Virus record (IMG/VR): IMGVR_UViG_3300049063_000008
Coordinates: 1 to 57,692 of that record
From: a virus
Lineage: Duplodnaviria > Caudoviricetes
DNA: 57,692 nucleotides
Direction: 5' to 3' (one strand)
Part shown: positions 921 through 31,499 of the stretch, in pieces
How positions within the stretch are numbered: the stretch's first letter is position 1
Layout: each line of letters opens with the position of its first letter
Translations under genes and position numbers: made by a program
The notes under the pieces: generated by a model
Database searches by the model: none
Seen by the model: the letters and a program-made list of their open reading frames with translations, nothing else
What the model was told of the DNA's origin: nothing

Positions 921-3900
921 ATGGCAAGGCATCTTTCAGAAATGATGCTCATTGTCAGAGCGCAGAATCAAGCCTCTGGCGCACTTAGACGCGTAGGCCG
1001 CGATCTTTCTGCTATGGGCAGACATCGCAATCTACAGATCCAACAGCAGAAAGTACTGTTGAATCAGCAGAACCTAATGCGCCAGAGGCAGCGCGCTCTA
1101 CGTGAACTCCAAAGTATCACACAGGGTTCACGCGCTCTAGGTCTACAGAGAGCGTCTGCTCAGATTGAGAAAGCACGTAATACTTTGCAGCAAAGGCGGA
1201 ATCGCCTATTGCTAGATCAGCAGGGTATTGCACAGACTATTGCGAATGCTCAGTCTCGTCTACAGAGAATCAATAACGACCTCTTCCGGAACGAAACTGC
1301 ACGTCTGCGGTTAGCTAACCGCTTACAGCAGGTTCAGGCACAAGAAGCAAACGCGCTTAAGCAGCGTCGCAATCTACAGGCAAGAGTAAGAAGGGGTACT
1401 GCTGATCCTGCCGGAGTAGCACCTATTACACAGGCGATCCAGGCTCTACGTCGTCAGTCTACAATTCTGGATCGTTCTCTACTGTCAAATGCAGATCGTC
1501 AGCGGGAGCTTGAACAAAGCTCCCGTTTGACGTCTAGGGCAATTGGCAACCAAGTTGCACGTTCAGCACTTCTTGGCAGACAGTGGAGAGCGACAGGAAG
1601 AGACGCTGAACTACTAGCGCAGCGTACGCAGCATGTTGCAGCACGACAACGTGAACTCGCATTACGAGCAAACGAAGTCCGAGCGCAACTTTCAGGAATC
1701 GCACAACGATACGCTATCGTCACTGCTCAACAGAATGCACTTAGCAAAGCTATCAGAGTTGAACGTTGGGAAAAGCTTTCTATCGCTGGTCGTACAATGC
1801 AGCATCTTGGCCGTGTTGGTCAGTATGCAACACTTGTGGTCGGTGCAGGATTAGGTCTAGCTGCACGACAAGCGGCAGAATTCAATAAACAGGCAACTCT
1901 CGTTGCTACGCAGGCTGGTACTGTTTCTGGGTCATTTGAAGAAGTTGCTACCAACGCAACTAAGATTGAAGCTGGCCTGCGGGCAATCTTGCCACAAACT
2001 ACGGCAACGCTAGATGAACTCAACAAGTCGGCCTACGAAGTATTTTCGAGCACCAACCTTGGTTCGCAAGGTGCTAAGGGTCTAGCCGCAGGTCTGAAAC
2101 TAGTTGGCCTGTTCTCTAAGGCTTCAATTGCGGGCCAAACTGATCTAACAAAGGTAACAGAAGCAGGCATCACTGTCTTTAACTCGTTCGGCAAAAACAT
2201 CAACAAGATGCCGAAGATTATGAACCGCATGTTCGCTGCGGTTCGTTTCGGTCGTTTCACATTTGAGGAACTATCGGCTTCGATGTCTCAGATTGCTCCT
2301 GCGGCAGTTGCAGCAAATCAGTCTTTCGATACAGTTGCAGGTTCAGCGGCATTCCTCTCTAGGCATATTCCCGCTGTAGGCATGATGAGAGCAGCTTTTG
2401 CTCGTTCTCTAGAAATGCTCAACATGCCCGACTTCGTAGACGGAATGAAGAAAGCCGGAGTTGCAGTGCGTGATGCTAGTGGTAGAATGCGACCACTCAA
2501 TCAGGTTATCGGAGATATCGTTAAGCGATTCCCCGAACTAAAAGCCGGAACAAAGGATGTTCAGTCATTCTACAAGGAAATTACAGCAGAGGGCGGTGGA
2601 GGTAAAGGCCGTGTAGGAACAATTCAGGGTCGTCGCGCACTTACCTTCTATTTCCGCTTCTTCGACCAGTACAAGAAACTCCTTGGTCAGACCATCCAGC
2701 CCCAAAACTCCTTCAACCGCGCACTTGCGGCAATGGAAACCACCACAGGGGTTAGGTGGGAGAAGTTCCTAAATCAGCTTCGCGCATTTGCACTAATGAT
2801 CGGTAGTGCTGTCCTGCCAGAACTTCTCAAACTAGCGCCACACATTACAAAAATCACGGATTATCTAAGAGACATGGATGGTGCGCTACGTGGCGATATT
2901 GTGCGTTGGATTGCATACGGAGTAGCAATTACCGGAGTAGCATCTGCACTAGCTTTCATCCTTGGCCCACTTATCCGACTAGCCGCAATGCTCGGTAAGA
3001 ATCGGCTTCTCTTCCTCGGCATGGGATCTGTAGCAATCGGAGTTGTAGCAGCTATTGCTCTATTGCGCGGCGAGTGGGACGGTCTTAACACTATTGTATC
3101 TGCGTTCTTTAACCTCACAGATCAAGGTGCGTGGGGTTGGGTTGCAATGTTCAGTATTGCCACTGTGGGAGCCTTTAAACTCGTAAAGGCCATTAATGCT
3201 GTAAGAACAGCGTGGATTGCATCTATGGCAGTTACTACTGCTGGAACTGCTGCTAGTAGTCTAGGTGGAATGGCAGCTATGTTCGGTAGAGGTAGAAGAA
3301 TGGCTAGCGATGTCCGTGGTGCTAGCTCTATCGTTAAAGAAACTTCTCGCAATGCCGGTAAACTGCGTGGTCTACTTGCAGGTGCAGGATTAGCAGCAAT
3401 GGCTATCCCTGGGCCACTGTGGATTGCAGCAGGAGCAATCGGAGTAGCAGCCGGTGGAGCCTTCCTTTGGCAGCGTTATCAGAAGTCCATCGCAAAAGAT
3501 GCAGAAAGAGCACAAGCTGCTATCCAGCATACTAGAGCGACGGCGGTTGCACCACAAATTCAAGCAGCCGACTTAGGAAATCTCGGCTCTCGGATTATGG
3601 ATGCTCGGAAGCTAGGAATTGAGTATAAGCGCCAAGAGCTAAATCTCAAAATGCTGCGTACTCAATTCAAAGGTGCCACTGGCGATCAAAAGAAGATGCT
3701 CGGCCTAGACATTCAGGATGCGGCTATTCGTGTAGCTGAATACTATCGCATGTGGCATGTTGCTATTGCTAAGGTAAGACAAACTGCTCCACAGTTGACG
3801 AACGCGATTAGGTCGCAAGCTTTAGTAATCCAGGAAGAAGGAAGAATTAGGTCACAGATCGTAGATGTAGAAAAGCGTCTTGCTGCTGCTCGAAAGATTG

Positions 3901-6512
3901 CGAACGTTCAGAGCAGGGGTAGCAACAGTATTGCTAAATCGAATGTACGAGATATTCAGCGCGAGCTTACTACTCTGCGAACACAGTTACAGCTTACAAA
4001 ATCAAGCGCAGGAGCTACTGCTAATACGATCAGAAGCAGCTTCGGGAAAGTAGTCCGTGATCTACAAGCTGGTGCCTTATTGCCAAGAAAGATCCCAAAG
4101 GGTGCAATTGATGCAATGATTCAAACTGCTCTCGGTCGTGGTAGAATGTTAACCATCCCTGAGATTAGAGCAGTAATCAAAGCATATGTAGACAAGGGAG
4201 CACTAGCAAGAGCTAAGGGAGATATCCAAGCTGCGGTTAAGACTGTGAAGGTAGACCTACGTATCGCAAAACTGCAAACTAGGTCAACAAATCTACAAAA
4301 GCAGCTACGCGCAGCTATTCATGCAGGTGAAACTGGTGAAGCGGCAGAAATTAGAACGAAGCTTTCGGGAGTGAAGGAAGCGATCAAGAACGCTAAGGCT
4401 GCAAGAGCGAACATCGCTGCTACTTTCCGCAAGATTATTACTCAGCGCGTTAACGTTAAAGTCAATCCTGCGAATACACAGCCGCTTGGTCTTGCAATCT
4501 CCAATGGTATCGCTGCTGGTATTAGAGCCGGCTTCCCCAACATTGATGCAGCAATTGGAGAACTACAGGCTAAGACTCTACGAGCAGCACAATTGAAGTT
4601 TGAGGTAGGTTCACCGTCTAGACTGTTTGAGCGCGAAATCGGCGCTCCAATCATTGACGGTATGATTAAGGGTATTCTCAACAAAGAGAAGATCGAACGA
4701 GCAGCGACTCTAACTATGACGCTGTTTGCTGGTGCCTTCATGCAGAAGCGTCAGGAACTAATCGACAACAATGACAAGTTCGATCCCTTAAAGCTAGAGA
4801 AGCTAGAGCAGCAGGCAGAAGATGCCAGAGCGCGATATGGGAAGAAGAAGCGAAATATCGACTTAATCCGCGCTAAGGAGTACGAGCGCAAAGCAGCAGA
4901 AATGCGTAAGCACGCAAAGAAGCTTACAGTTGCGGATCTAATCAAGGATACCCGGCAACAGGCCAAGGAATTCAAGATTTTCAACAACGCCTTGAAGTCA
5001 TTGTCTATCCGAATTCCAGCACAGATGCTAGAGGATCTACGCGGACTAGGAATTGAGGGTTTGCAGTACATCAAGCTACTAGCAAACGCAACCCCACAGC
5101 AGTTGAAGAAGATGGTAAATGCATGGAAGGCTATGCAGGCGCAGATCAAGCGTTCTCAGACAGCTTCTATCGCAGATACCAAGGAATTCAACGCGGCACA
5201 GAAAGAACAGCTAAAGGAACTAACCGATACTGCGGCGCAGACTCTCCTAGATAAGTGGAACGAGCTAAAGCAGCGCAATATCCAGCAATTCGGAGAGTTG
5301 TTCGGTGGGCCTACCAATCTAGGTGATCGTATCGGACAAAGTTTTGATGATGCTATCAAACAGTACGACGATGCTGTTAAGGATTTCAACGATCAGATTG
5401 ATGCCCTACTAGATCAGGTTAACGATCTGCACACACAGGCACTAAAGCAGCGCACAGAGGAACTACAGCAAGCATTCGGCACACTGTTCGGCGGACAGTG
5501 GATGCAGGATGTAATGAGCGTTAATGCAGATTGGGGTATTGCTCCTACATTCAACGACCTGTTCACAGACCTGCAAAGCCAGTTAGAGAGATTCAACACT
5601 TGGCGAGAAACTCTAGCTTCGCTTGCCTCTAAGGTGCCACCAGAGCTAGCAGCACAACTAGAAGCTTTAGGGCCAGAAGCAATCCAGAGCCTACAGGCTC
5701 TCAATGGTGCAACCGCCGAGCAAATCGCACAGTACATTGCGCTATGGCAGCAAGCGCAAGGTCAGATTGGTGCAACAGCAGGAGCTACCTATCAGACCTC
5801 AGAATTTGCTTCACAGCTAGCCGAACTCAATTCACAGATTCTTGCAGTACGTGAGCAAATGGCACTCTTGCAGAAGCCACTTGCAGTTACGGGACAAGAC
5901 GTAATTGCTGATCTGGATGCACAAATCGGCAAGTGGACTGAATATGAAACAATGCTAACTGAGTTGAAGAATAGGGGAGTCCCACTTGCCCTAATTGCAC
6001 AGCTACGCGATATGGGTCCAGAAGCCCTGCCTTATCTACAGGCTCTCAATACTCTGACTAACGAACAGCTCATCAGTGGACCCAATTCGTTCGTAGGCAA
6101 GTGGAAAGAGGCTAATCGCCTAATCAACGAATCCACCAATACTGCTATGAACGAGCAGTTGAAAATGTGGTATAGTCACGGAGCGAATATCGCTTCGGCT
6201 CTCATCGCAGGCGTAGCTTCTGAGCAACAGGCACTACTAGACTTCTTTGGGAAACTATTCCGCAATCTCTTGGAAGGAAAATTCCCCACTATTCCTGGTA
6301 CGGCTACAGGTGGCGGTACTCAGGGCTATATGTATAGTAGCGATCCAGATTCAAGTGCCCGTCGAGCAGCAGACTATACACCCCCGGCTAATAGCACCTA
6401 CAGCACCAATACACAGTCTACCGTGAATCTAACTGTAAATGCCCATCAGGATGAAGAACTGATGAGTACGATGGAACGTGCCCTATTTAGACTTAGGAAC
6501 AGATCAGAATGA
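921..6512 (+). CDS. Tape measure protein
   Basis: 1863 aa, Ala/Leu/Gln-rich helical protein, TP901-like core, central hydrophobic segments, follows the chaperone. Confidence 0.93.
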   Translation: MARHLSEMMLIVRAQNQASGALRRVGRDLSAMGRHRNLQIQQQKVLLNQQNLMRQRQRALRELQSITQGSRALGLQRASAQIEKARNTLQQRRNRLLLDQQGIAQTIANAQSRLQRINNDLFRNETARLRLANRLQQVQAQEANALKQRRNLQARVRRGTADPAGVAPITQAIQALRRQSTILDRSLLSNADRQRELEQSSRLTSRAIGNQVARSALLGRQWRATGRDAELLAQRTQHVAARQRELALRANEVRAQLSGIAQRYAIVTAQQNALSKAIRVERWEKLSIAGRTMQHLGRVGQYATLVVGAGLGLAARQAAEFNKQATLVATQAGTVSGSFEEVATNATKIEAGLRAILPQTTATLDELNKSAYEVFSSTNLGSQGAKGLAAGLKLVGLFSKASIAGQTDLTKVTEAGITVFNSFGKNINKMPKIMNRMFAAVRFGRFTFEELSASMSQIAPAAVAANQSFDTVAGSAAFLSRHIPAVGMMRAAFARSLEMLNMPDFVDGMKKAGVAVRDASGRMRPLNQVIGDIVKRFPELKAGTKDVQSFYKEITAEGGGGKGRVGTIQGRRALTFYFRFFDQYKKLLGQTIQPQNSFNRALAAMETTTGVRWEKFLNQLRAFALMIGSAVLPELLKLAPHITKITDYLRDMDGALRGDIVRWIAYGVAITGVASALAFILGPLIRLAAMLGKNRLLFLGMGSVAIGVVAAIALLRGEWDGLNTIVSAFFNLTDQGAWGWVAMFSIATVGAFKLVKAINAVRTAWIASMAVTTAGTAASSLGGMAAMFGRGRRMASDVRGASSIVKETSRNAGKLRGLLAGAGLAAMAIPGPLWIAAGAIGVAAGGAFLWQRYQKSIAKDAERAQAAIQHTRATAVAPQIQAADLGNLGSRIMDARKLGIEYKRQELNLKMLRTQFKGATGDQKKMLGLDIQDAAIRVAEYYRMWHVAIAKVRQTAPQLTNAIRSQALVIQEEGRIRSQIVDVEKRLAAARKIANVQSRGSNSIAKSNVRDIQRELTTLRTQLQLTKSSAGATANTIRSSFGKVVRDLQAGALLPRKIPKGAIDAMIQTALGRGRMLTIPEIRAVIKAYVDKGALARAKGDIQAAVKTVKVDLRIAKLQTRSTNLQKQLRAAIHAGETGEAAEIRTKLSGVKEAIKNAKAARANIAATFRKIITQRVNVKVNPANTQPLGLAISNGIAAGIRAGFPNIDAAIGELQAKTLRAAQLKFEVGSPSRLFEREIGAPIIDGMIKGILNKEKIERAATLTMTLFAGAFMQKRQELIDNNDKFDPLKLEKLEQQAEDARARYGKKKRNIDLIRAKEYERKAAEMRKHAKKLTVADLIKDTRQQAKEFKIFNNALKSLSIRIPAQMLEDLRGLGIEGLQYIKLLANATPQQLKKMVNAWKAMQAQIKRSQTASIADTKEFNAAQKEQLKELTDTAAQTLLDKWNELKQRNIQQFGELFGGPTNLGDRIGQSFDDAIKQYDDAVKDFNDQIDALLDQVNDLHTQALKQRTEELQQAFGTLFGGQWMQDVMSVNADWGIAPTFNDLFTDLQSQLERFNTWRETLASLASKVPPELAAQLEALGPEAIQSLQALNGATAEQIAQYIALWQQAQGQIGATAGATYQTSEFASQLAELNSQILAVREQMALLQKPLAVTGQDVIADLDAQIGKWTEYETMLTELKNRGVPLALIAQLRDMGPEALPYLQALNTLTNEQLISGPNSFVGKWKEANRLINESTNTAMNEQLKMWYSHGANIASALIAGVASEQQALLDFFGKLFRNLLEGKFPTIPGTATGGGTQGYMYSSDPDSSARRAADYTPPANSTYSTNTQSTVNLTVNAHQDEELMSTMERALFRLRNRSE

Positions 6513-7407: not shown

Positions 7408-8391
7408 ATGGCAGTATATCCGCAATCCGTCTTATCTCCTGATCCTCTTTGGCTACAGTCTAAGAGCTATGATGCTCGTTCTCTCCGTAAGCCGTTTTCG
7501 GATATTCTGTCGCCAGGTGTCGAGGATGCAGCAAGTTTCGCTGTAACCATTAACTCGGGTCTACAGCTAAGTATTGCAGCAGGAACAGCATATGTGCTTG
7601 GTCAGAACGTAACTGACCAGGGACTCTATCGGCAGTATACCACCGCTGCTGTTCTTGTTACGGCTAATGCCCATCATGCAACATTGCCTCGAATCGACCA
7701 GGTAATTCTCCGTATCATGGACAATGCCCACGATGGATCTACATTCAATGAAGCTCGTATTGAGATTGTACCTGGTACTGCAACAGCCGGTGCTACTCTC
7801 GATAACCGTAACGGGGCAGCCAACCTGACAACTCTTGGTGAAGCTTCAAAGAGTGTTCTACTACTGGCAGATGTTCTAGTACCTGCAACCTCGGGTGCTG
7901 TTACTGTGCGTGATAGACGCGCACAGGCTAGACTATTAGTACAGGGTGCTCTTCCAGCGGGTACTAGCATTGAGTATAACGGTGCCGGTACTCCCGCAGG
8001 TGGCTTCTTCCCCGAAGATGGTTCTGCTATTAGTCGATTCACCTACAGCGAGCTATTTGCCGCAATTGGTACATTGTGGGGAGCAGGTGACGGAAGTACT
8101 ACATTTGCCGTACCGGATAAACGCGGTCGTACCTCAGTAGGTAAGGGTACTCACACAGATGTTGATACTGTTGGTAAGACCGACGGCGTTGCAGTTGGTA
8201 CTCGTCGCATGGCTCACGGACATACAAATGACCTTTCCCTTGGAGTTTCAAATACCGTTGGCGGAAATCAGGTATATAACGGTACGACGGGGAATGTTCA
8301 GTATAACGTCAATTTCTCGGGGGGCGTCGGTGTTACTGGAATGGTCAATACTCCTGCCTTTGCTGTATGCGCGAAATGGATTAAATACTAA
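7408..8391 (+). CDS. Tail fibre / minor tail protein with tail collar domain
   Basis: PAGT...DGSAISRFTYSELFAAIGTLWGAGDGSTTFAVPDKRGR is the tail-collar signature. Confidence 0.85.
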   Translation: MAVYPQSVLSPDPLWLQSKSYDARSLRKPFSDILSPGVEDAASFAVTINSGLQLSIAAGTAYVLGQNVTDQGLYRQYTTAAVLVTANAHHATLPRIDQVILRIMDNAHDGSTFNEARIEIVPGTATAGATLDNRNGAANLTTLGEASKSVLLLADVLVPATSGAVTVRDRRAQARLLVQGALPAGTSIEYNGAGTPAGGFFPEDGSAISRFTYSELFAAIGTLWGAGDGSTTFAVPDKRGRTSVGKGTHTDVDTVGKTDGVAVGTRRMAHGHTNDLSLGVSNTVGGNQVYNGTTGNVQYNVNFSGGVGVTGMVNTPAFAVCAKWIKY

Positions 8392-8696
8392 TGACTACAC
8401 TAGATCAGCACATCCTGCACATTATGTCTCAGCAAGTTAAAGGCTACCTCATTAATCCAAATGCCGCAGCGTTTGTTGCTGCTGGTTTAGATGATATTGA
8501 GGCTATTGAGGAATCCTTAAAGAAGATGCTTGATAAAGGCTTAGTTGAGTACATCGTAGAAGAGACTGACTATGAACGTCGGAACTTTACTCCGAGTGAA
8601 GATGATCCAAAACTAGGAACAGTTGAAGTTGAACAGTACAGCGAAGTTACTGACTTCGGATGGGTACTTACTGAGAAAGGCCGTAAGGCGATTTAG
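8391..8696 (+). CDS. Hypothetical protein (tail module)
   Basis: Translationally coupled ORF. Confidence 0.65.
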   Translation: MTTLDQHILHIMSQQVKGYLINPNAAAFVAAGLDDIEAIEESLKKMLDKGLVEYIVEETDYERRNFTPSEDDPKLGTVEVEQYSEVTDFGWVLTEKGRKAI

Positions 8697-29079: not shown

Positions 29080-29619
29080 CTAGTACCAACCATTCGCATT
29101 GTGGAATGCTAGAGCGGCGCATGATCCACCGTAACGAGTATTCACGTAGTAGATCATCCACTTTAGCTGAGTCCACGGATTAGTCATGTAGTCTTTACCC
29201 CATGGCCTCATCTTAGAAGCCGGAAGTGCCTGACCAATACCGTATGCTCCGCTACCTTGATAGTTCCAAATTGTGGGACTATACGTTCCTACTGTTTCTC
29301 TGCGGCTAATTTCTCTGAGGCAAGGATCTGGAAACGCATGTGCTCCCCACGTCGGACGTGGTGGATACAAGAGTCGTAGAGTTTCTTTACGTTCTCTTGC
29401 GAGCCACAAACGTGCGTGACAATGCCATGTTCTAGTACTGCCCTTCCCGTTGTTGCAGACGTACTTAACATGTTTGAGATTTTCTGTCTGACTTGCTAGC
29501 TGTGCCTTTAAGCTGTCGTTTTTCGGCTTAGTGACTAAATGGGCCTGTGCTGTCGGAACCCAAAATGCCACGAAACTGATGATGACAATTGTTAGCGCAT
29601 ATCTAGCTCGTTTTGACAA
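29080..29619 (-). CDS. Secreted lytic transglycosylase (lysozyme-like)
   Basis: Signal peptide ending AQA; RRET, SGAYGIGQALPASKM, TNPWTQLKW...YV..RYG...A...H...GWY. Confidence 0.85.
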   Translation of the reverse strand: MSKRARYALTIVIISFVAFWVPTAQAHLVTKPKNDSLKAQLASQTENLKHVKYVCNNGKGSTRTWHCHARLWLARERKETLRLLYPPRPTWGAHAFPDPCLREISRRETVGTYSPTIWNYQGSGAYGIGQALPASKMRPWGKDYMTNPWTQLKWMIYYVNTRYGGSCAALAFHNANGWY

Positions 29620-29646
29620 AATGCTCCTAACCTAGCTGACAGAAAG

Positions 29647-29714
29647 TTAGGAGGCAAATGACACCTAACGGGCGGTGGACGTCATTTTGTTGTTAGTTGC
29701 CACTTGCCTCCTAA
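29647..29714 (-). ncRNA. Structured RNA module (17-bp closing stem)
   Basis: TTAGGAGGCAAGTGGCA/TGTCATTTGCCTCCTAA; two G-U pairs only on the - strand. Confidence 0.6.
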
Positions 29715-29716
29715 TA

Positions 29717-29774
29717 ACCAAAGGGCGGTATTTACTGAGAGCCGTACTAACTCCCTTCAATACCGCCCTTTGGT
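29717..29774 (-). ncRNA. Structured RNA module (16-bp perfect stem)
   Basis: ACCAAAGGGCGGTATT/AATACCGCCCTTTGGT. Confidence 0.6.
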
Positions 29775-29805
29775 GAGCGCGATGAGACTTAGCCCATCGG
29801 TTAGC

Positions 29806-29834
29806 ACCCTAGCAGATGCGCTCCTTGTTGTCAA
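29806..29834 (-). promoter_or_regulatory. Promoter inside the RNA array
   Basis: TTGACA-N17-TAGGGT with extended TG. Confidence 0.7.
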
Positions 29835-29841
29835 CCCTAAT

Positions 29842-29942
29842 TGTGGCCTAGTGTGGAAATAGCCTTAACAGCCATTTCTACCCCACCCGTTCGTTCTGTC
29901 CATGAACTCGGCTGTGGGGCACTGTGGCTACACTAGGCCACA
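29842..29942 (-). ncRNA. Structured RNA module, three-way junction
   Basis: TGTGGCCTAGTGT/ACACTAGGCCACA closing stem; inner TGCCCCAC/GTGGGGTA and GAAATGGC/GCTATTTC. Confidence 0.65.
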
Positions 29943-29947
29943 TTGTA

Positions 29948-30016
29948 GAGCTACGTTAGGCAGGGAGTGTACCCCTACACTGTCTAGACACTGTATCAGC
30001 ACTTCTAACGTAGCTC
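29948..30016 (-). ncRNA. GAGCUACG-stem RNA module A
   Basis: GAGCTACGTTAG/CTAACGTAGCTC 12-bp stem. Confidence 0.65.
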
Positions 30017-30146
30017 ACGGCAGGGAGGTAAATCAAAGCCGAAGGGCATAACGGATACGTTAAGAATCTCCCTACGGACCCGGTTCATCGTGCGTATCCA
30101 ACACTTCACCGATGGTTCTTCTTTGATTTACCTGATTCCCTGCCGT
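30017..30146 (-). ncRNA. Long rod-like RNA module
   Basis: ACGGCAGGG..AGGTAAATCAAAG/CTTTGATTTACCTCCCTGCCGT plus inner GGATACG/CGTATCC. Confidence 0.65.
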
Positions 30147-30161
30147 CAACTACGTATTAGA

Positions 30162-30255
30162 ATGATAGCCTGCGAGTTGCCGAATCTCGCTACTCCATCT
30201 TAGGGGATGGTGTTATATTACCGTATTTTGCGAACTGCTTAACTAAGGCTACCAT
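30162..30255 (-). ncRNA. Multi-arm (cloverleaf-like) RNA module
   Basis: ATGGTAGCCT/AGGCTATCAT closing stem; CCATC/GATGG and GCGAG/CTCGC arms. Confidence 0.55.
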
Positions 30256-30279
30256 CTTCCGATGCGGCCACCGGATTAT

Positions 30280-30361
30280 TGAGCTACGCAACCGTCGTAC
30301 TCGGTATCCCGAATGACATACGTATATTACCTACCACAGAGATAGCGTATTGCGTAACTCA
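30280..30361 (-). ncRNA. GAG(U/C)UACG-stem RNA module B
   Basis: TGAGTTACGCAA/TTGCGTAGCTCA (U-G pair on the - strand); two inner hairpins. Confidence 0.65.
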
Positions 30362-30694
30362 TGGACGTGGCGGGAATCGAACCCGCGTCCGAACTAGCGG
30401 TATACACATTTCTTCTAGCAGCTTATCTTACGGGGGCAACTAGGTTAGCTTACCCTCCACCACTCAGTCTTTCCTGAGAGTCAACACCAATGACTGTTAG
30501 ATGGTCATTGTTTACTACGATCTGCCTAATTATGTTCCGTGGTTAGACAGCAACCAGGACTTCATCCATAACCCAATCAGGGATGAAGTCGGGGCACTTG
30601 TTATCTGCGCCGTTTGTGTGGTTTGCTAATTTAGGTGTTAGCAACCGCTGCGAACTGTGTATCCTTACTAACCCGTCGAAACCAGTACACGCCC
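30362..30694 (-). ncRNA. ssrA: tmRNA
   Basis: 5' GGGCGTG...TTCGAC; 3' GACGCGGGTTCGATTCCCGCCACGTCCA; acceptor stem with G3-U; helix 2 pairing; PK1; tag ORF 30611-30543; CCA not encoded. Confidence 0.93.
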
Positions 30695-30703
30695 TTGTAT
30701 TAC

Positions 30704-30803
30704 TGAGCTACGTCACTTGTATCTAGTTTGTGGCGATACCATTCGGCTCGGATTAGGCCACCTTTTAAGGGAAAGGCGTCTAGACCTTGAATGACGTAGC
30801 TCA
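30704..30803 (-). ncRNA. GAGCUACG-stem RNA module C
   Basis: TGAGCTACGTCA/TGACGTAGCTCA plus TCTAG/CTAGA and GTGGC/GCCAC helices. Confidence 0.65.
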
Positions 30804-30804
30804 A

Positions 30805-30913
30805 TAGCTTAGGAGAGAATCGAACTCTCAGGGGACAGATATTAGATAGTACGTTACCATGACCCACCCCTCTATCCGTACTTCACCACGTAACCAATTC
30901 GTGGGACTAAGCT
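30805..30913 (-). ncRNA. tRNA-like RNA lacking a canonical anticodon arm
   Basis: Acceptor AGCTTAG/CTAAGCT+A; D-arm CCACG-AATTGGTTA-CGTGG; T-arm GAGAG-TTCGATT-CTCTC; ~55-nt insert in place of the anticodon arm. Confidence 0.75.
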
Positions 30914-30917
30914 ACCT

Positions 30918-31034
30918 TAGAGTAGGCTACCCTTACTTTAGGACGGCGAGCCGACTAACTAAAGGTTTGGTACTTACGAGCGTCACGGTATTGAGCATTG
31001 TGTACTCACCGCTTCTTTGTTCCTACCTACTCTA
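30918..31034 (-). ncRNA. Structured RNA module
   Basis: TAGAGTAGG/CCTACTCTA closing stem; CTTTAG/CTAAAG and TGAGTA/TGCTCA arms. Confidence 0.55.
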
Positions 31035-31043
31035 GTTGTCAAG

Positions 31044-31109
31044 AGAGTGGTCATGTTTGTTGGTATGGGATTCATTTGCAGTGATAACCCACACCATCCG
31101 GCCCACTCT
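31044..31109 (-). ncRNA. Structured RNA module
   Basis: AGAGTGG/CCACTCT with inner TGGT/TGGG helices. Confidence 0.4.
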
Positions 31110-31133
31110 TTAAAACGCGGGTGGCTTTTTGCT

Positions 31134-31234: not shown

Positions 31235-31423
31235 CTACACTAGACTTGTTGGTCTACGTCTGGAAGCCCATCTTTGTGGTTGCCGTCTTACTGGCCTTGT
31301 CCGCGCAGGGTTTGCCTGCTGCTCATCTAGTTGTACGTATTCGCAATCAAGGCAGTAGTGAGCCTTTGCACTATTGTCGTAGTGCAGTTCACTGTCGATG
31401 CAATATGGACAATACCTCTTCAT
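31235..31423 (-). CDS. Small Zn-ribbon protein with Arg-rich tail
   Basis: AGGAGGT RBS; CPYC...CLDC; RTRPVRRQPQRWASRRR. Confidence 0.65.
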   Translation of the reverse strand: MKRYCPYCIDSELHYDNSAKAHYCLDCEYVQLDEQQANPARTRPVRRQPQRWASRRRPTSLV

Positions 31424-31499
31424 TGCTACCTCCTGCCTTGTGTTTCTAAAGGCCACTTTGAGATTGAACTCCACAGCTTAACTGAGTGGCCTATCTTAC

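Follow-up and report, generated by a model that had tools for sequence, protein, structure and literature searches.

A sequence-constrained stem with interchangeable interiors in the small-RNA locus of an uncultivated soil phage family

The tRNA cluster of phage T4 contains the stable RNAs C and D (species 1 and 2), small structured non-tRNA RNAs that are interleaved with tRNA-type genes in a phage RNA operon. A conserved closing helix below variable or modular upper parts is found in Y RNAs and in YrlA, which are bound by Ro60 (Rsr), as described in PMC4201824. RNase P is described as a ruler on the acceptor/T-arm helix that also cuts non-tRNA substrates, including transfer-messenger RNA (tmRNA), 4.5S RNA and MALAT1 (PMC4919913), and YrlA of Mycobacterium smegmatis is reported to be cut by RNase P before CCA is added (PMC4201824). 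In tRNA-like punctuation, as with mascRNA at the 3′ end of MALAT1, tight tRNA arrays and the RNase P-cut tmRNA, 4.5S RNA and YrlA, a helix stands right after the 3′ end of another RNA (PMC4919913, PMC4201824). At the DNA level, the PeSL motifs of T4-like phages are, according to PMC4122927, short conserved motifs that bound variable segments at exchange points in a hyper-plastic region; they consist of an early promoter and a terminator and flank open reading frames (ORFs). Here we describe an RNA element that resembles each of these systems in part. It lies on the − strand of a complete 57,692-bp virus record from a soil siphovirus (IMG/VR record IMGVR_UViG_3300049063_000008, hereafter the window), around and beside a tmRNA gene, and consists of a constant stem, the handle or foot, closed over interchangeable interiors, the cargo.

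What is particular to this element is its short fixed foot, a three-word bistable junction and its use in the leaders of protein genes. It shares with T4 RNAs C and D the position among tRNA-type genes, but differs from them in having one fixed foot with many unrelated interiors, a three-word composite build and copies before protein genes, and has no sequence relation to them; the array in the window gave no Rfam match to RNA C or D at E up to 10. No published description of the element was found by a motif word search, which returned only small interfering RNAs, tRNAs and similar, or by a search for hairpins in phage tRNA arrays, supplementary files not being covered by either.

The initial annotation of this DNA had proposed three RNA modules that open with GAG(C/U)UACG and close with CGUAGCUC, with the next three to four pairs co-varying. 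All three modules were confirmed to have this build on the − strand, and the coordinates proposed for them were correct to within 1 nt. Module A reads GAGCUACG-UCA...UGA-CGUAGCUC, with UCAUU/AGUGA as its inner pairs, module B reads GAGUUACG-CAA...UUG-CGUAGCUC, with one U.G pair in the handle, and module C reads GAGCUACG-UUAG...CUAA-CGUAGCUC. The foot thus comprises 8 bp, GAGCUACG/CGUAGCUC, and an outward extension to AUUGAGCUACG/CGUAGCUCAAU is often present. Counting both strands, nine exact copies of the 8-mer were found in the window, five of them inside the 855-nt stretch that holds the modules, where a sixth copy carries one mismatch. The full hairpin pattern matched the genome exactly three times, at modules A, B and C, and a reversed control matched nowhere. 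Each module is predicted to fold into a Y-shaped hairpin, in which a 12-14-bp closing stem bears two or three inner hairpins, and the folding z-scores relative to shuffled sequences were −4.9, −3.9 and −3.0 for A, B and C, respectively. The cargo inside the extended stems measures 76 nt in A, 58 nt in B and 45 nt in C. Only one direct-repeat family runs across the three modules, that of the handle and its 3′ flank, and the only repeat common to cargos is an 8-nt palindrome, GUCUAGAC, in A and C (30778-30792 and 29982-29996); GUCUAG of this palindrome region is retained in the homologue of module A at the related locus L076. The words are inverted around each cargo, and no repeat array of the CRISPR or type III toxin-antitoxin kind was seen. 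No Rfam 15 family reached its gathering threshold on the modules, and within the window only the tmRNA did so.

The handle proved to be half of a larger element, which consists of a word X (ACGUAGUUGA), cargo 1, a word Y (UGAGCUACGU), cargo 2 and a word Z (ACGUAGCUCA). Frequent flanks are AUGAGA after X, UCUCAU before Y and AU after Z. Pairing of X with Y closes a long hairpin, here called type I, and the perfect pairing of Y with Z closes the type II hairpin, which is the module described above. The X:Y pairing carries a U.G pair and a GxG mismatch at fixed positions in the window and in L076, L097, L125 and L127. In the window the X word lies at 30155-30146, and the 3′ arm of the type I hairpin (30026-30008) holds the Y word that is also used by module C; the predicted folding energy of this hairpin is −67.8 kcal/mol (z −7.0). 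Complete X-Y-Z elements were found in the window (30155-29947), in L076, L133/L128, L126, L057, L097, L125 and L127, and twice in L044. Each module had been proposed to begin 0-1 nt after the 3′ end of another RNA, which proved only partly correct. Module A starts 2 nt (UU) past the discriminator A of a tRNA-like RNA at 30805, and module B starts 1 nt (U) past the tmRNA end at 30362. Module C had been placed behind a 'rod', a claim that did not stand, as the 5′ arm of C doubles as the 3′ arm of the type I hairpin. The X word, the competition of X and Z for Y and the occurrence of the element before protein genes in relatives had been missed.

To what extent the element is found elsewhere was examined with pattern scans over 2.9 million viral contigs. 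These were regular-expression and pattern scans rather than searches with a covariance model, and copies with several compensatory changes in the handle may escape them. A strict 18-base pattern gave 16 loci, of which 12 (L044, L057, L076, L115, L125-L129 and L131-L133) are relatives of the window. Eleven of these 12 share the helicase or neighbouring genes and carry the element at the syntenic place; L044 was included by architecture only. The remaining strict matches (L082, L124, L130 and L134) were not tied to the family, and L130 overlaps a tRNA-His gene on the opposite strand. When at most one mismatch to the handle was allowed, 13 hairpins were found on the sense strand vs two on the antisense strand; at two to three mismatches the matches were mostly noise. 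A first wide scan was set aside, as 62 of the 118 matches listed were an unrelated 85-nt segment, probably coding, and most others were due to chance. This segment is bounded by the same two 8-mers (L011, L013-L016 and at least 55 further loci) and is well conserved; it has no relation to this phage family and probably belongs to a conserved gene. L149 carries, at the syntenic place (4359-4428), a hairpin with a 14-bp stem and the foot GAGCGACG/CGUUGCUU, which may be a drifted handle that has kept its pairing through changes on both sides.

A second set of loci was chosen independently of the motif, by anchoring on the helicase (37 loci with at least 2.5 kb upstream). The paired words were present on the coding strand in 13 of the 37; two of these look like chance, leaving 11 loci in about five lineages. 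The locus sits between a conserved gene of 118 amino acids, with homologues in 26 loci, and a zinc-ribbon gene followed by the helicase, and varies greatly in content. In G001, the closest complete relative (helicase 75% identical), it is occupied by a collagen-like gene and by a minimal X:Y hairpin lying over a stop codon; neither a tmRNA nor a Y...Z type II hairpin was found there. Reuse of one closing 8-mer in at least two hairpins was seen only in this window among 57 related loci tested alike, and no other repeated closing stem was found beyond chance in the relatives that lack the words. When eight related loci were searched with Rfam at E up to 0.05, the L076 tmRNA alone exceeded its cut-off, and a DNA search of isolated phages returned only a 33-nt tmRNA match, to Xanthomonas phage XacN1. 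In several relatives the Z word precedes a protein gene: it lies 16-19 nt before the ribosome-binding site twice in L076 and in L057, and 17 nt before the gene start in L115, indicating that the element is not restricted to RNA genes. From the strict scans and the helicase-anchored loci we conclude that the stem is conserved in homologous arrays, the absence of which the initial annotation had named as grounds for abandoning its proposal, and that X-Y-Z is used by a family of uncultivated soil phages in one hyper-variable locus.

Comparison of the modules showed how strictly the foot is constrained. The 14 modules compared differ at pairs 1-8 by G.U transitions alone, and show four to six pair types at each of pairs 9-12. 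Handle variants were seen in module B, in the L076 homologue of module A and in L144, and each is a transition that creates G.U in the sense RNA. The L076 homologue (8352-8437) of module A has kept the handle; compensatory changes distinguish the two copies at two pairs next to its inner side and at another two within the cargo. Of 20 hairpins, 19 fold better in sense than in antisense, with totals of −729 vs −624 kcal/mol, and the 20 hairpins contain 64 G.U pairs in sense vs 31 in antisense, a difference to which base composition may contribute. The half-sites lie 45-107 nt apart, which argues against a DNA operator. This distance, the G.U variants on the transcribed strand and the better sense fold also speak against a caveat of the initial annotation, that the stem might act as an operator in DNA rather than as RNA. 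The strand asymmetry, the G.U-only variants and the compensatory changes inside the handle point to RNA structure. The constant, sequence-constrained stem with interchangeable cargo is real, and the design that had been suggested, a constant stem with variable domains, is what was found: the stem is fixed, the inner pairs co-vary and the cargo is unrelated between copies.

As X:Y and Y:Z share the Y word, the two pairings are mutually exclusive over 9-12 nt. The predicted minimum-energy fold picks Y:Z in seven of eight elements. Folds in which X:Y was forced differed from those in which Y:Z was forced by −6.7 to +2.4 kcal/mol, so the two states have nearly equal predicted energy. X amounts to a weakened version of Z, and Y would therefore be expected to pair first with X and then to be taken over by Z. 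In this model, X:Y would form first during transcription, and Z could displace X from Y once it emerged.

The interiors are exchanged between close relatives. Where L126 and L128 are compared, the flanks are 95% identical and the type II module is shared, and the two type I hairpins have entirely different interiors between UGAAUG and CAUUGAG. This was seen in one pair only; it is the behaviour of an exchange motif, i.e. a conserved motif bordering segments that are swapped between close relatives. Furthermore, module A lies upstream of the tmRNA in the window and downstream of it in L076. The conserved words may also serve as short homology for swaps of RNA cassettes between phages.

The RNAs that precede modules A and B were characterized further. 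The tRNA-like RNA (~109 nt) has a 7-bp acceptor stem (AGCUUAG/CUAAGCU), a T arm (GAGAG-UUCGAUU-CUCUC), a D-like arm and a discriminator A; it has no CCA and no normal anticodon arm. A different tRNA-like RNA of the same build and position is found in L115 (~3775-3862), where it is followed by UU and a type II hairpin. The tmRNA of the window has an atypical tag, GADNKCPDFIPDWVMDEVLVAV, and no encoded CCA; Z of module A lies 10 nt upstream of it and Y of module B 1 nt downstream. The L076 tmRNA (7825-8118) is homologous, being 90% identical over the last 72 nt, and has a different tag. Four rhizosphere RNA libraries contain exact contigs of this phage, in which the depth was 19-44 over the tmRNA body and 3-5 over flanking coding DNA. 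The deepest contigs (30809-30995 and 30852-31013, depth 49-61) cover the tRNA-like RNA and ~100 nt upstream; a stable species may therefore be longer than the tRNA-like part, as judged from contigs whose ends are unreliable. Two contigs bridge neighbouring RNAs, one running from the tRNA-like RNA into module A (30709-30859, depth 3.9) and the other from module A into the tmRNA (30385-30759), which shows that joined forms exist in the RNA libraries. Module A is represented by these low-depth bridging contigs only. None of the contigs reaches into 29572-30241, or into 30242-30361 beyond shared 31-mers, which leaves them uninformative for module B, the rod and module C.

Additional evidence bears on the host. 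Exact copies of the final 23 nt of the tmRNA are present in five contigs of a set of species-representative genomes, four of which are Actinomycetota metagenome-assembled genomes (MAGs); one of these four shares 33 nt of the tmRNA end, also without an encoded CCA. In a protein search of isolated phages, the helicase identity was only 25-28% even with the nearest ones, which are phages of Gordonia, Arthrobacter and Mycobacterium. The host of the phage family is probably a member of the Actinomycetota. The strict hairpin pattern was not enriched in this phylum, with matches in 7 of 401 genomes vs 4 of 401 for a reversed control, five of the seven sharing one flanking word, and it was found in none of the four genomes that share the tmRNA end; both counts speak against a host-derived element. 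We also considered descent of the foot from the 5′ end of a tRNA. The Z word with its flank resembles tRNA positions 6-16, with a likeness to an elongator tRNA-Met, but no tRNA with the junction word was found in the four candidate genomes: seven near-matches were obtained, six loci were scanned and the only tRNA detected, a tRNA-Pro, lay ~80 nt from the match.

The reading that we favour, at a rough probability of 0.4, is that the foot is a sequence-constrained punctuation and end-capping helix in a polycistronic RNA, that it is possibly cut like a tRNA acceptor stem, and that it also forms a boundary for cassette exchange. In common with tRNA-end substrates, the modules combine a G at +1, preceded by U at −1, with a stem of ~12 bp and an A behind it; the RNAs upstream have no encoded CCA, and contigs bridge the junctions. 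G(+1) and U(−1) are present in all 14 correctly registered modules (the 15th, L144, being out of register by 1 nt) and A follows the stem in 11 of 15, the closing stems being 8-14 bp long (median 12-13) and ending in multiloops. The geometry of the helix base would suit tRNA-end enzymes, with RNase P acting at the 5′ foot and RNase Z at the 3′ foot, or another host endonuclease. A cut at this point would free the preceding CCA-less tRNA-like RNA and tmRNA. Its products in relatives would be an mRNA with a base-paired 5′ end on the downstream side and an RNA that ends in a 3′ hairpin on the upstream side, and the takeover of Y from X by Z may time or gate the cut. The earlier suggestion that 3′ processing of the upstream tRNA-like RNA creates the 5′ end of the module is plausible on the basis of U at −1, G at +1 and the spacer of 1-2 U.

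Several observations weigh against this reading, whose specific RNase P/RNase Z version, suggested by geometry and precedent, we regard as doubtful. Pairing of U(−1) with A(+1) is feasible in 11 of 15 modules and would carry the helix past the proposed cut through AUU/AAU, a situation unfavourable for canonical RNase P. Unlike described tRNA-like punctuation, the modules have no T loop, no elbow and no match to the Rfam tRNA clan, so that recognition by RNase P or RNase Z would be a matter of geometry. The strictness of the stem sequence is not explained by these enzymes, which need no fixed stem sequence; it suggests an extra sequence-reading factor or maintenance via recombination. RNase Z alone could mature the CCA-less tRNA-like RNA, and the module would not be needed. 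The element is also dispensable, as 26 of the 37 helicase-anchored relatives do not have the words. Twelve of the 14 modules compared came from the exact pattern, making the invariance of the handle partly circular; the unbiased part of the comparison consists of the three window copies and two copies found by adjacency. Finally, the RNA-library evidence consists of assembled contigs, in which strand and RNA ends are unreadable and DNA may be included.

Other functions of the foot were weighed against the punctuation helix. The main idea of the initial annotation was a protein handle, in which a host or phage RNA-binding protein reads the fixed 8-11-bp foot and each cargo has a different partner or target, as with Ro60 and Y RNAs. 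A strict foot sequence beside co-varying pairs is what a sequence-reading protein would impose, and the conservation of the module A cargo between two phages whose helicases are 46% identical indicates that this cargo is more than filler. The same array contains a Y-RNA-like hairpin that scores below the cut-off of its Rfam family, and a zinc-ribbon protein with an arginine-rich tail is encoded directly upstream (both are described below). We nevertheless consider this explanation unlikely, as no candidate protein was found: a Pfam search of 97 ORFs gave no known RNA-binding or RNase family among 25 listed of 29 families, and TROVE (PF05731) was detected neither in the phage nor in the four genomes sharing the tmRNA 3′ end, which are incomplete MAGs, so absence from them is not proven. 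The modules have the conserved closing helix and variable upper parts of Y RNAs and YrlA, but no tRNA-like domain. They contain no Ro60-binding motif, given for bacteria as GNCGAAN0-1G in PMC4201824, and an Rfam search at E up to 10 matched them to neither Y_RNA nor YrlA, the single YrlA row (E 0.65) being due to the T arm of the tmRNA. Kinship with Y RNAs was thus not upheld. Neither was a guide function, since 16, 89, 99, 80, 29 and 79 of 100 shuffles attained the longest complementarity between the respective cargo and either strand of the window, i.e. complementarity to the phage genome was no better than in shuffled sequences. A cis-acting role agrees better with the position that the element often has in relatives, in a 5′ untranslated region at a distance of 16-19 nt from the ribosome-binding site that follows. 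Such a role could be that of an RNA switch: X and Z would compete for Y and thereby control the downstream gene or RNA at the level of read-through, translation or stability, much as put-type antiterminators and attenuators do. The design of three words in which X is a weakened Z, the U.G pair and GxG mismatch kept in five loci, the near-equal energies and the position upstream of ribosome-binding sites (L076 twice, L057) and of a gene start (L115) are what a switch would be expected to show. We judge it quite improbable all the same: Z is not followed by the U tract of a classical intrinsic terminator, an X partner is missing from modules A and B, which stand before RNAs rather than genes, the ribosome-binding sites lie in neither helix, and the variable cargo suggests no ligand or factor.

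A primary role at the DNA level, with the words as boundaries for cassette exchange by short-homology or site-specific recombination and the RNA fold as a by-product, would resemble PeSLs or integron attC sites. The clean replacement of cargo between the words in the two 95%-identical relatives, the different order of module A and tmRNA in the window and L076, and the very different content of the locus among relatives such as G001 would all follow from it, and PeSLs provide a precedent as conserved composite motifs at exchange points in T4-like phages (PMC4122927). Here, unlike in PeSLs, the segments flanked are folded RNA cargo and the words themselves form the stem; they coincide with no promoter-like or terminator-like site, neither a sigma-70-like site nor a stem followed by a T run being found at them. 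The hexamers that follow the 3′ arms (AGUAAU, AAUAAU and UACAAU) were also read as possible promoters and rejected, as they represent the outward palindromic extension (AAU:AUU), have no −35 element and were not found by a consensus scan. The attC core sites have the consensus RYYYAAC/GTTRRRY, which the words do not fit, and no tyrosine integrase is encoded by the phage (no PF00589 match). As the handle variants form G.U pairs on the sense strand and sense folds better in 19 of 20 hairpins, selection on RNA is indicated, and because short common words promote exchange whatever their main function, the swap does not show their purpose. We therefore hold a primarily DNA-level role to be rather unlikely. 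In the early region of phage T7, polycistronic RNA is processed at RNase III hairpins, and host RNase III might likewise cut the long X:Y helix, and perhaps Y:Z extended by AUU/AAU, with the conserved mismatch setting the cleavage pattern. The type I hairpins, with 22-35 predicted pairs and the conserved internal GxG mismatch, are of the kind that classically serves for the processing of polycistronic phage RNAs. With 8-14 uninterrupted pairs vs about two turns (at least 20 bp), the closing stems of type II are short for this enzyme, and an enzyme with little sequence specificity leaves the fixed words unexplained; this proposal appears the least probable of those considered. Hardly more probable is the boldest combination of these ideas, in which X-Y-Z would be a portable bistable RNA junction whose three-strand foot is read by one dedicated factor and doubles as a recombination boundary. 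Phages could then insert, exchange and express arbitrary folded small RNAs, for instance decoys or effectors that counter host defences, beside tmRNA and tRNA-like RNAs, in the manner of an integron for non-coding RNA, with the hand-over from X to Z timing the release of the cassette.

The features of the array are listed in Table 1. The genes at 12-42 kb are on the − strand, and ~1.6 kb without credible ORFs separates the ORF ending at 31235 from the ORF starting at 29619. On the − strand the order is tRNA-like RNA, UU, module A, 10 nt, tmRNA, U, module B, a 125-nt structured stretch, the 148-nt hairpin and module C. The phage encodes a family A DNA polymerase, a primase and a SNF2-type helicase; gene annotation and Pfam checks found no RNA polymerase, RNA ligase, Ro60/TROVE protein or integrase.

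Table 1. Positions of the RNA features in the window, with the basis on which each was assigned
Feature	Position	Strand	Length	Basis
Module A, type II hairpin (Y:Z)	30705..30802	−	98 nt	Pattern match, folding, comparison with L076 homologue
Module B, type II hairpin	30281..30360	−	80 nt	Pattern match, folding; starts 1 nt past tmRNA
Module C, type II hairpin, Y:Z half of complete X-Y-Z element	29948..30016	−	69 nt	Pattern match, folding
Type I hairpin (X:Y)	30008..30155	−	148 nt	19-nt arms 89% complementary; folding
Structured spacer, module B to X word; first half of the 'rod' of the initial annotation	30156..30280	−		Sequence only
tmRNA gene, no encoded CCA	30362..30694	−		ARAGORN; Rfam RF00023, 85.3 bits; exact RNA-library contigs
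tRNA-like RNA	30805..30913	−		Sequence; RNA-library contigs; like arrangement in L115; not called by ARAGORN

Further features were noted on either side of the array. The small ORF directly upstream (31235-31474, − strand) encodes a CxxC...CxxC zinc-ribbon protein with an arginine-rich tail; it had no Pfam or PHROG match, and tblastn found no homologue in 78 related loci. A hairpin at ~31041-31110 (− strand), ~130 nt upstream of the tRNA-like RNA, matched RF01656 (nematode stem-bulge RNA, Y-RNA homologues) with 33.2 bits and E 1.7e-4, below the cut-off of 38, and Y_RNA weakly (E 8); the match covers a Ro-binding-type lower stem and a GGGUUAUC box. Past module C, a promoter-like TTGACA-17-TAGGGT is followed by a 16-bp perfect hairpin (29806-29834 and 29717-29774, respectively, − strand). 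This hairpin is kept with altered stem letters in the closest relative (L004, ~1985-2040), in the leader of a transglycosylase-like gene.

Islands of tRNA and tmRNA genes in phages are usually annotated gene by gene, and the intergenic sequence is ignored. In this island the 'spacers' are a conserved RNA element with exchangeable interiors, common to a family of uncultivated soil phages and found in replication-gene leaders as well. Should the foot be a protein handle, its many cargos would represent a library of unknown effectors. If it is a processing signal, it would provide a simple rule to predict the ends of phage small RNAs, and a compact natural part with which RNAs could be insulated in, or released from, polycistronic transcripts.

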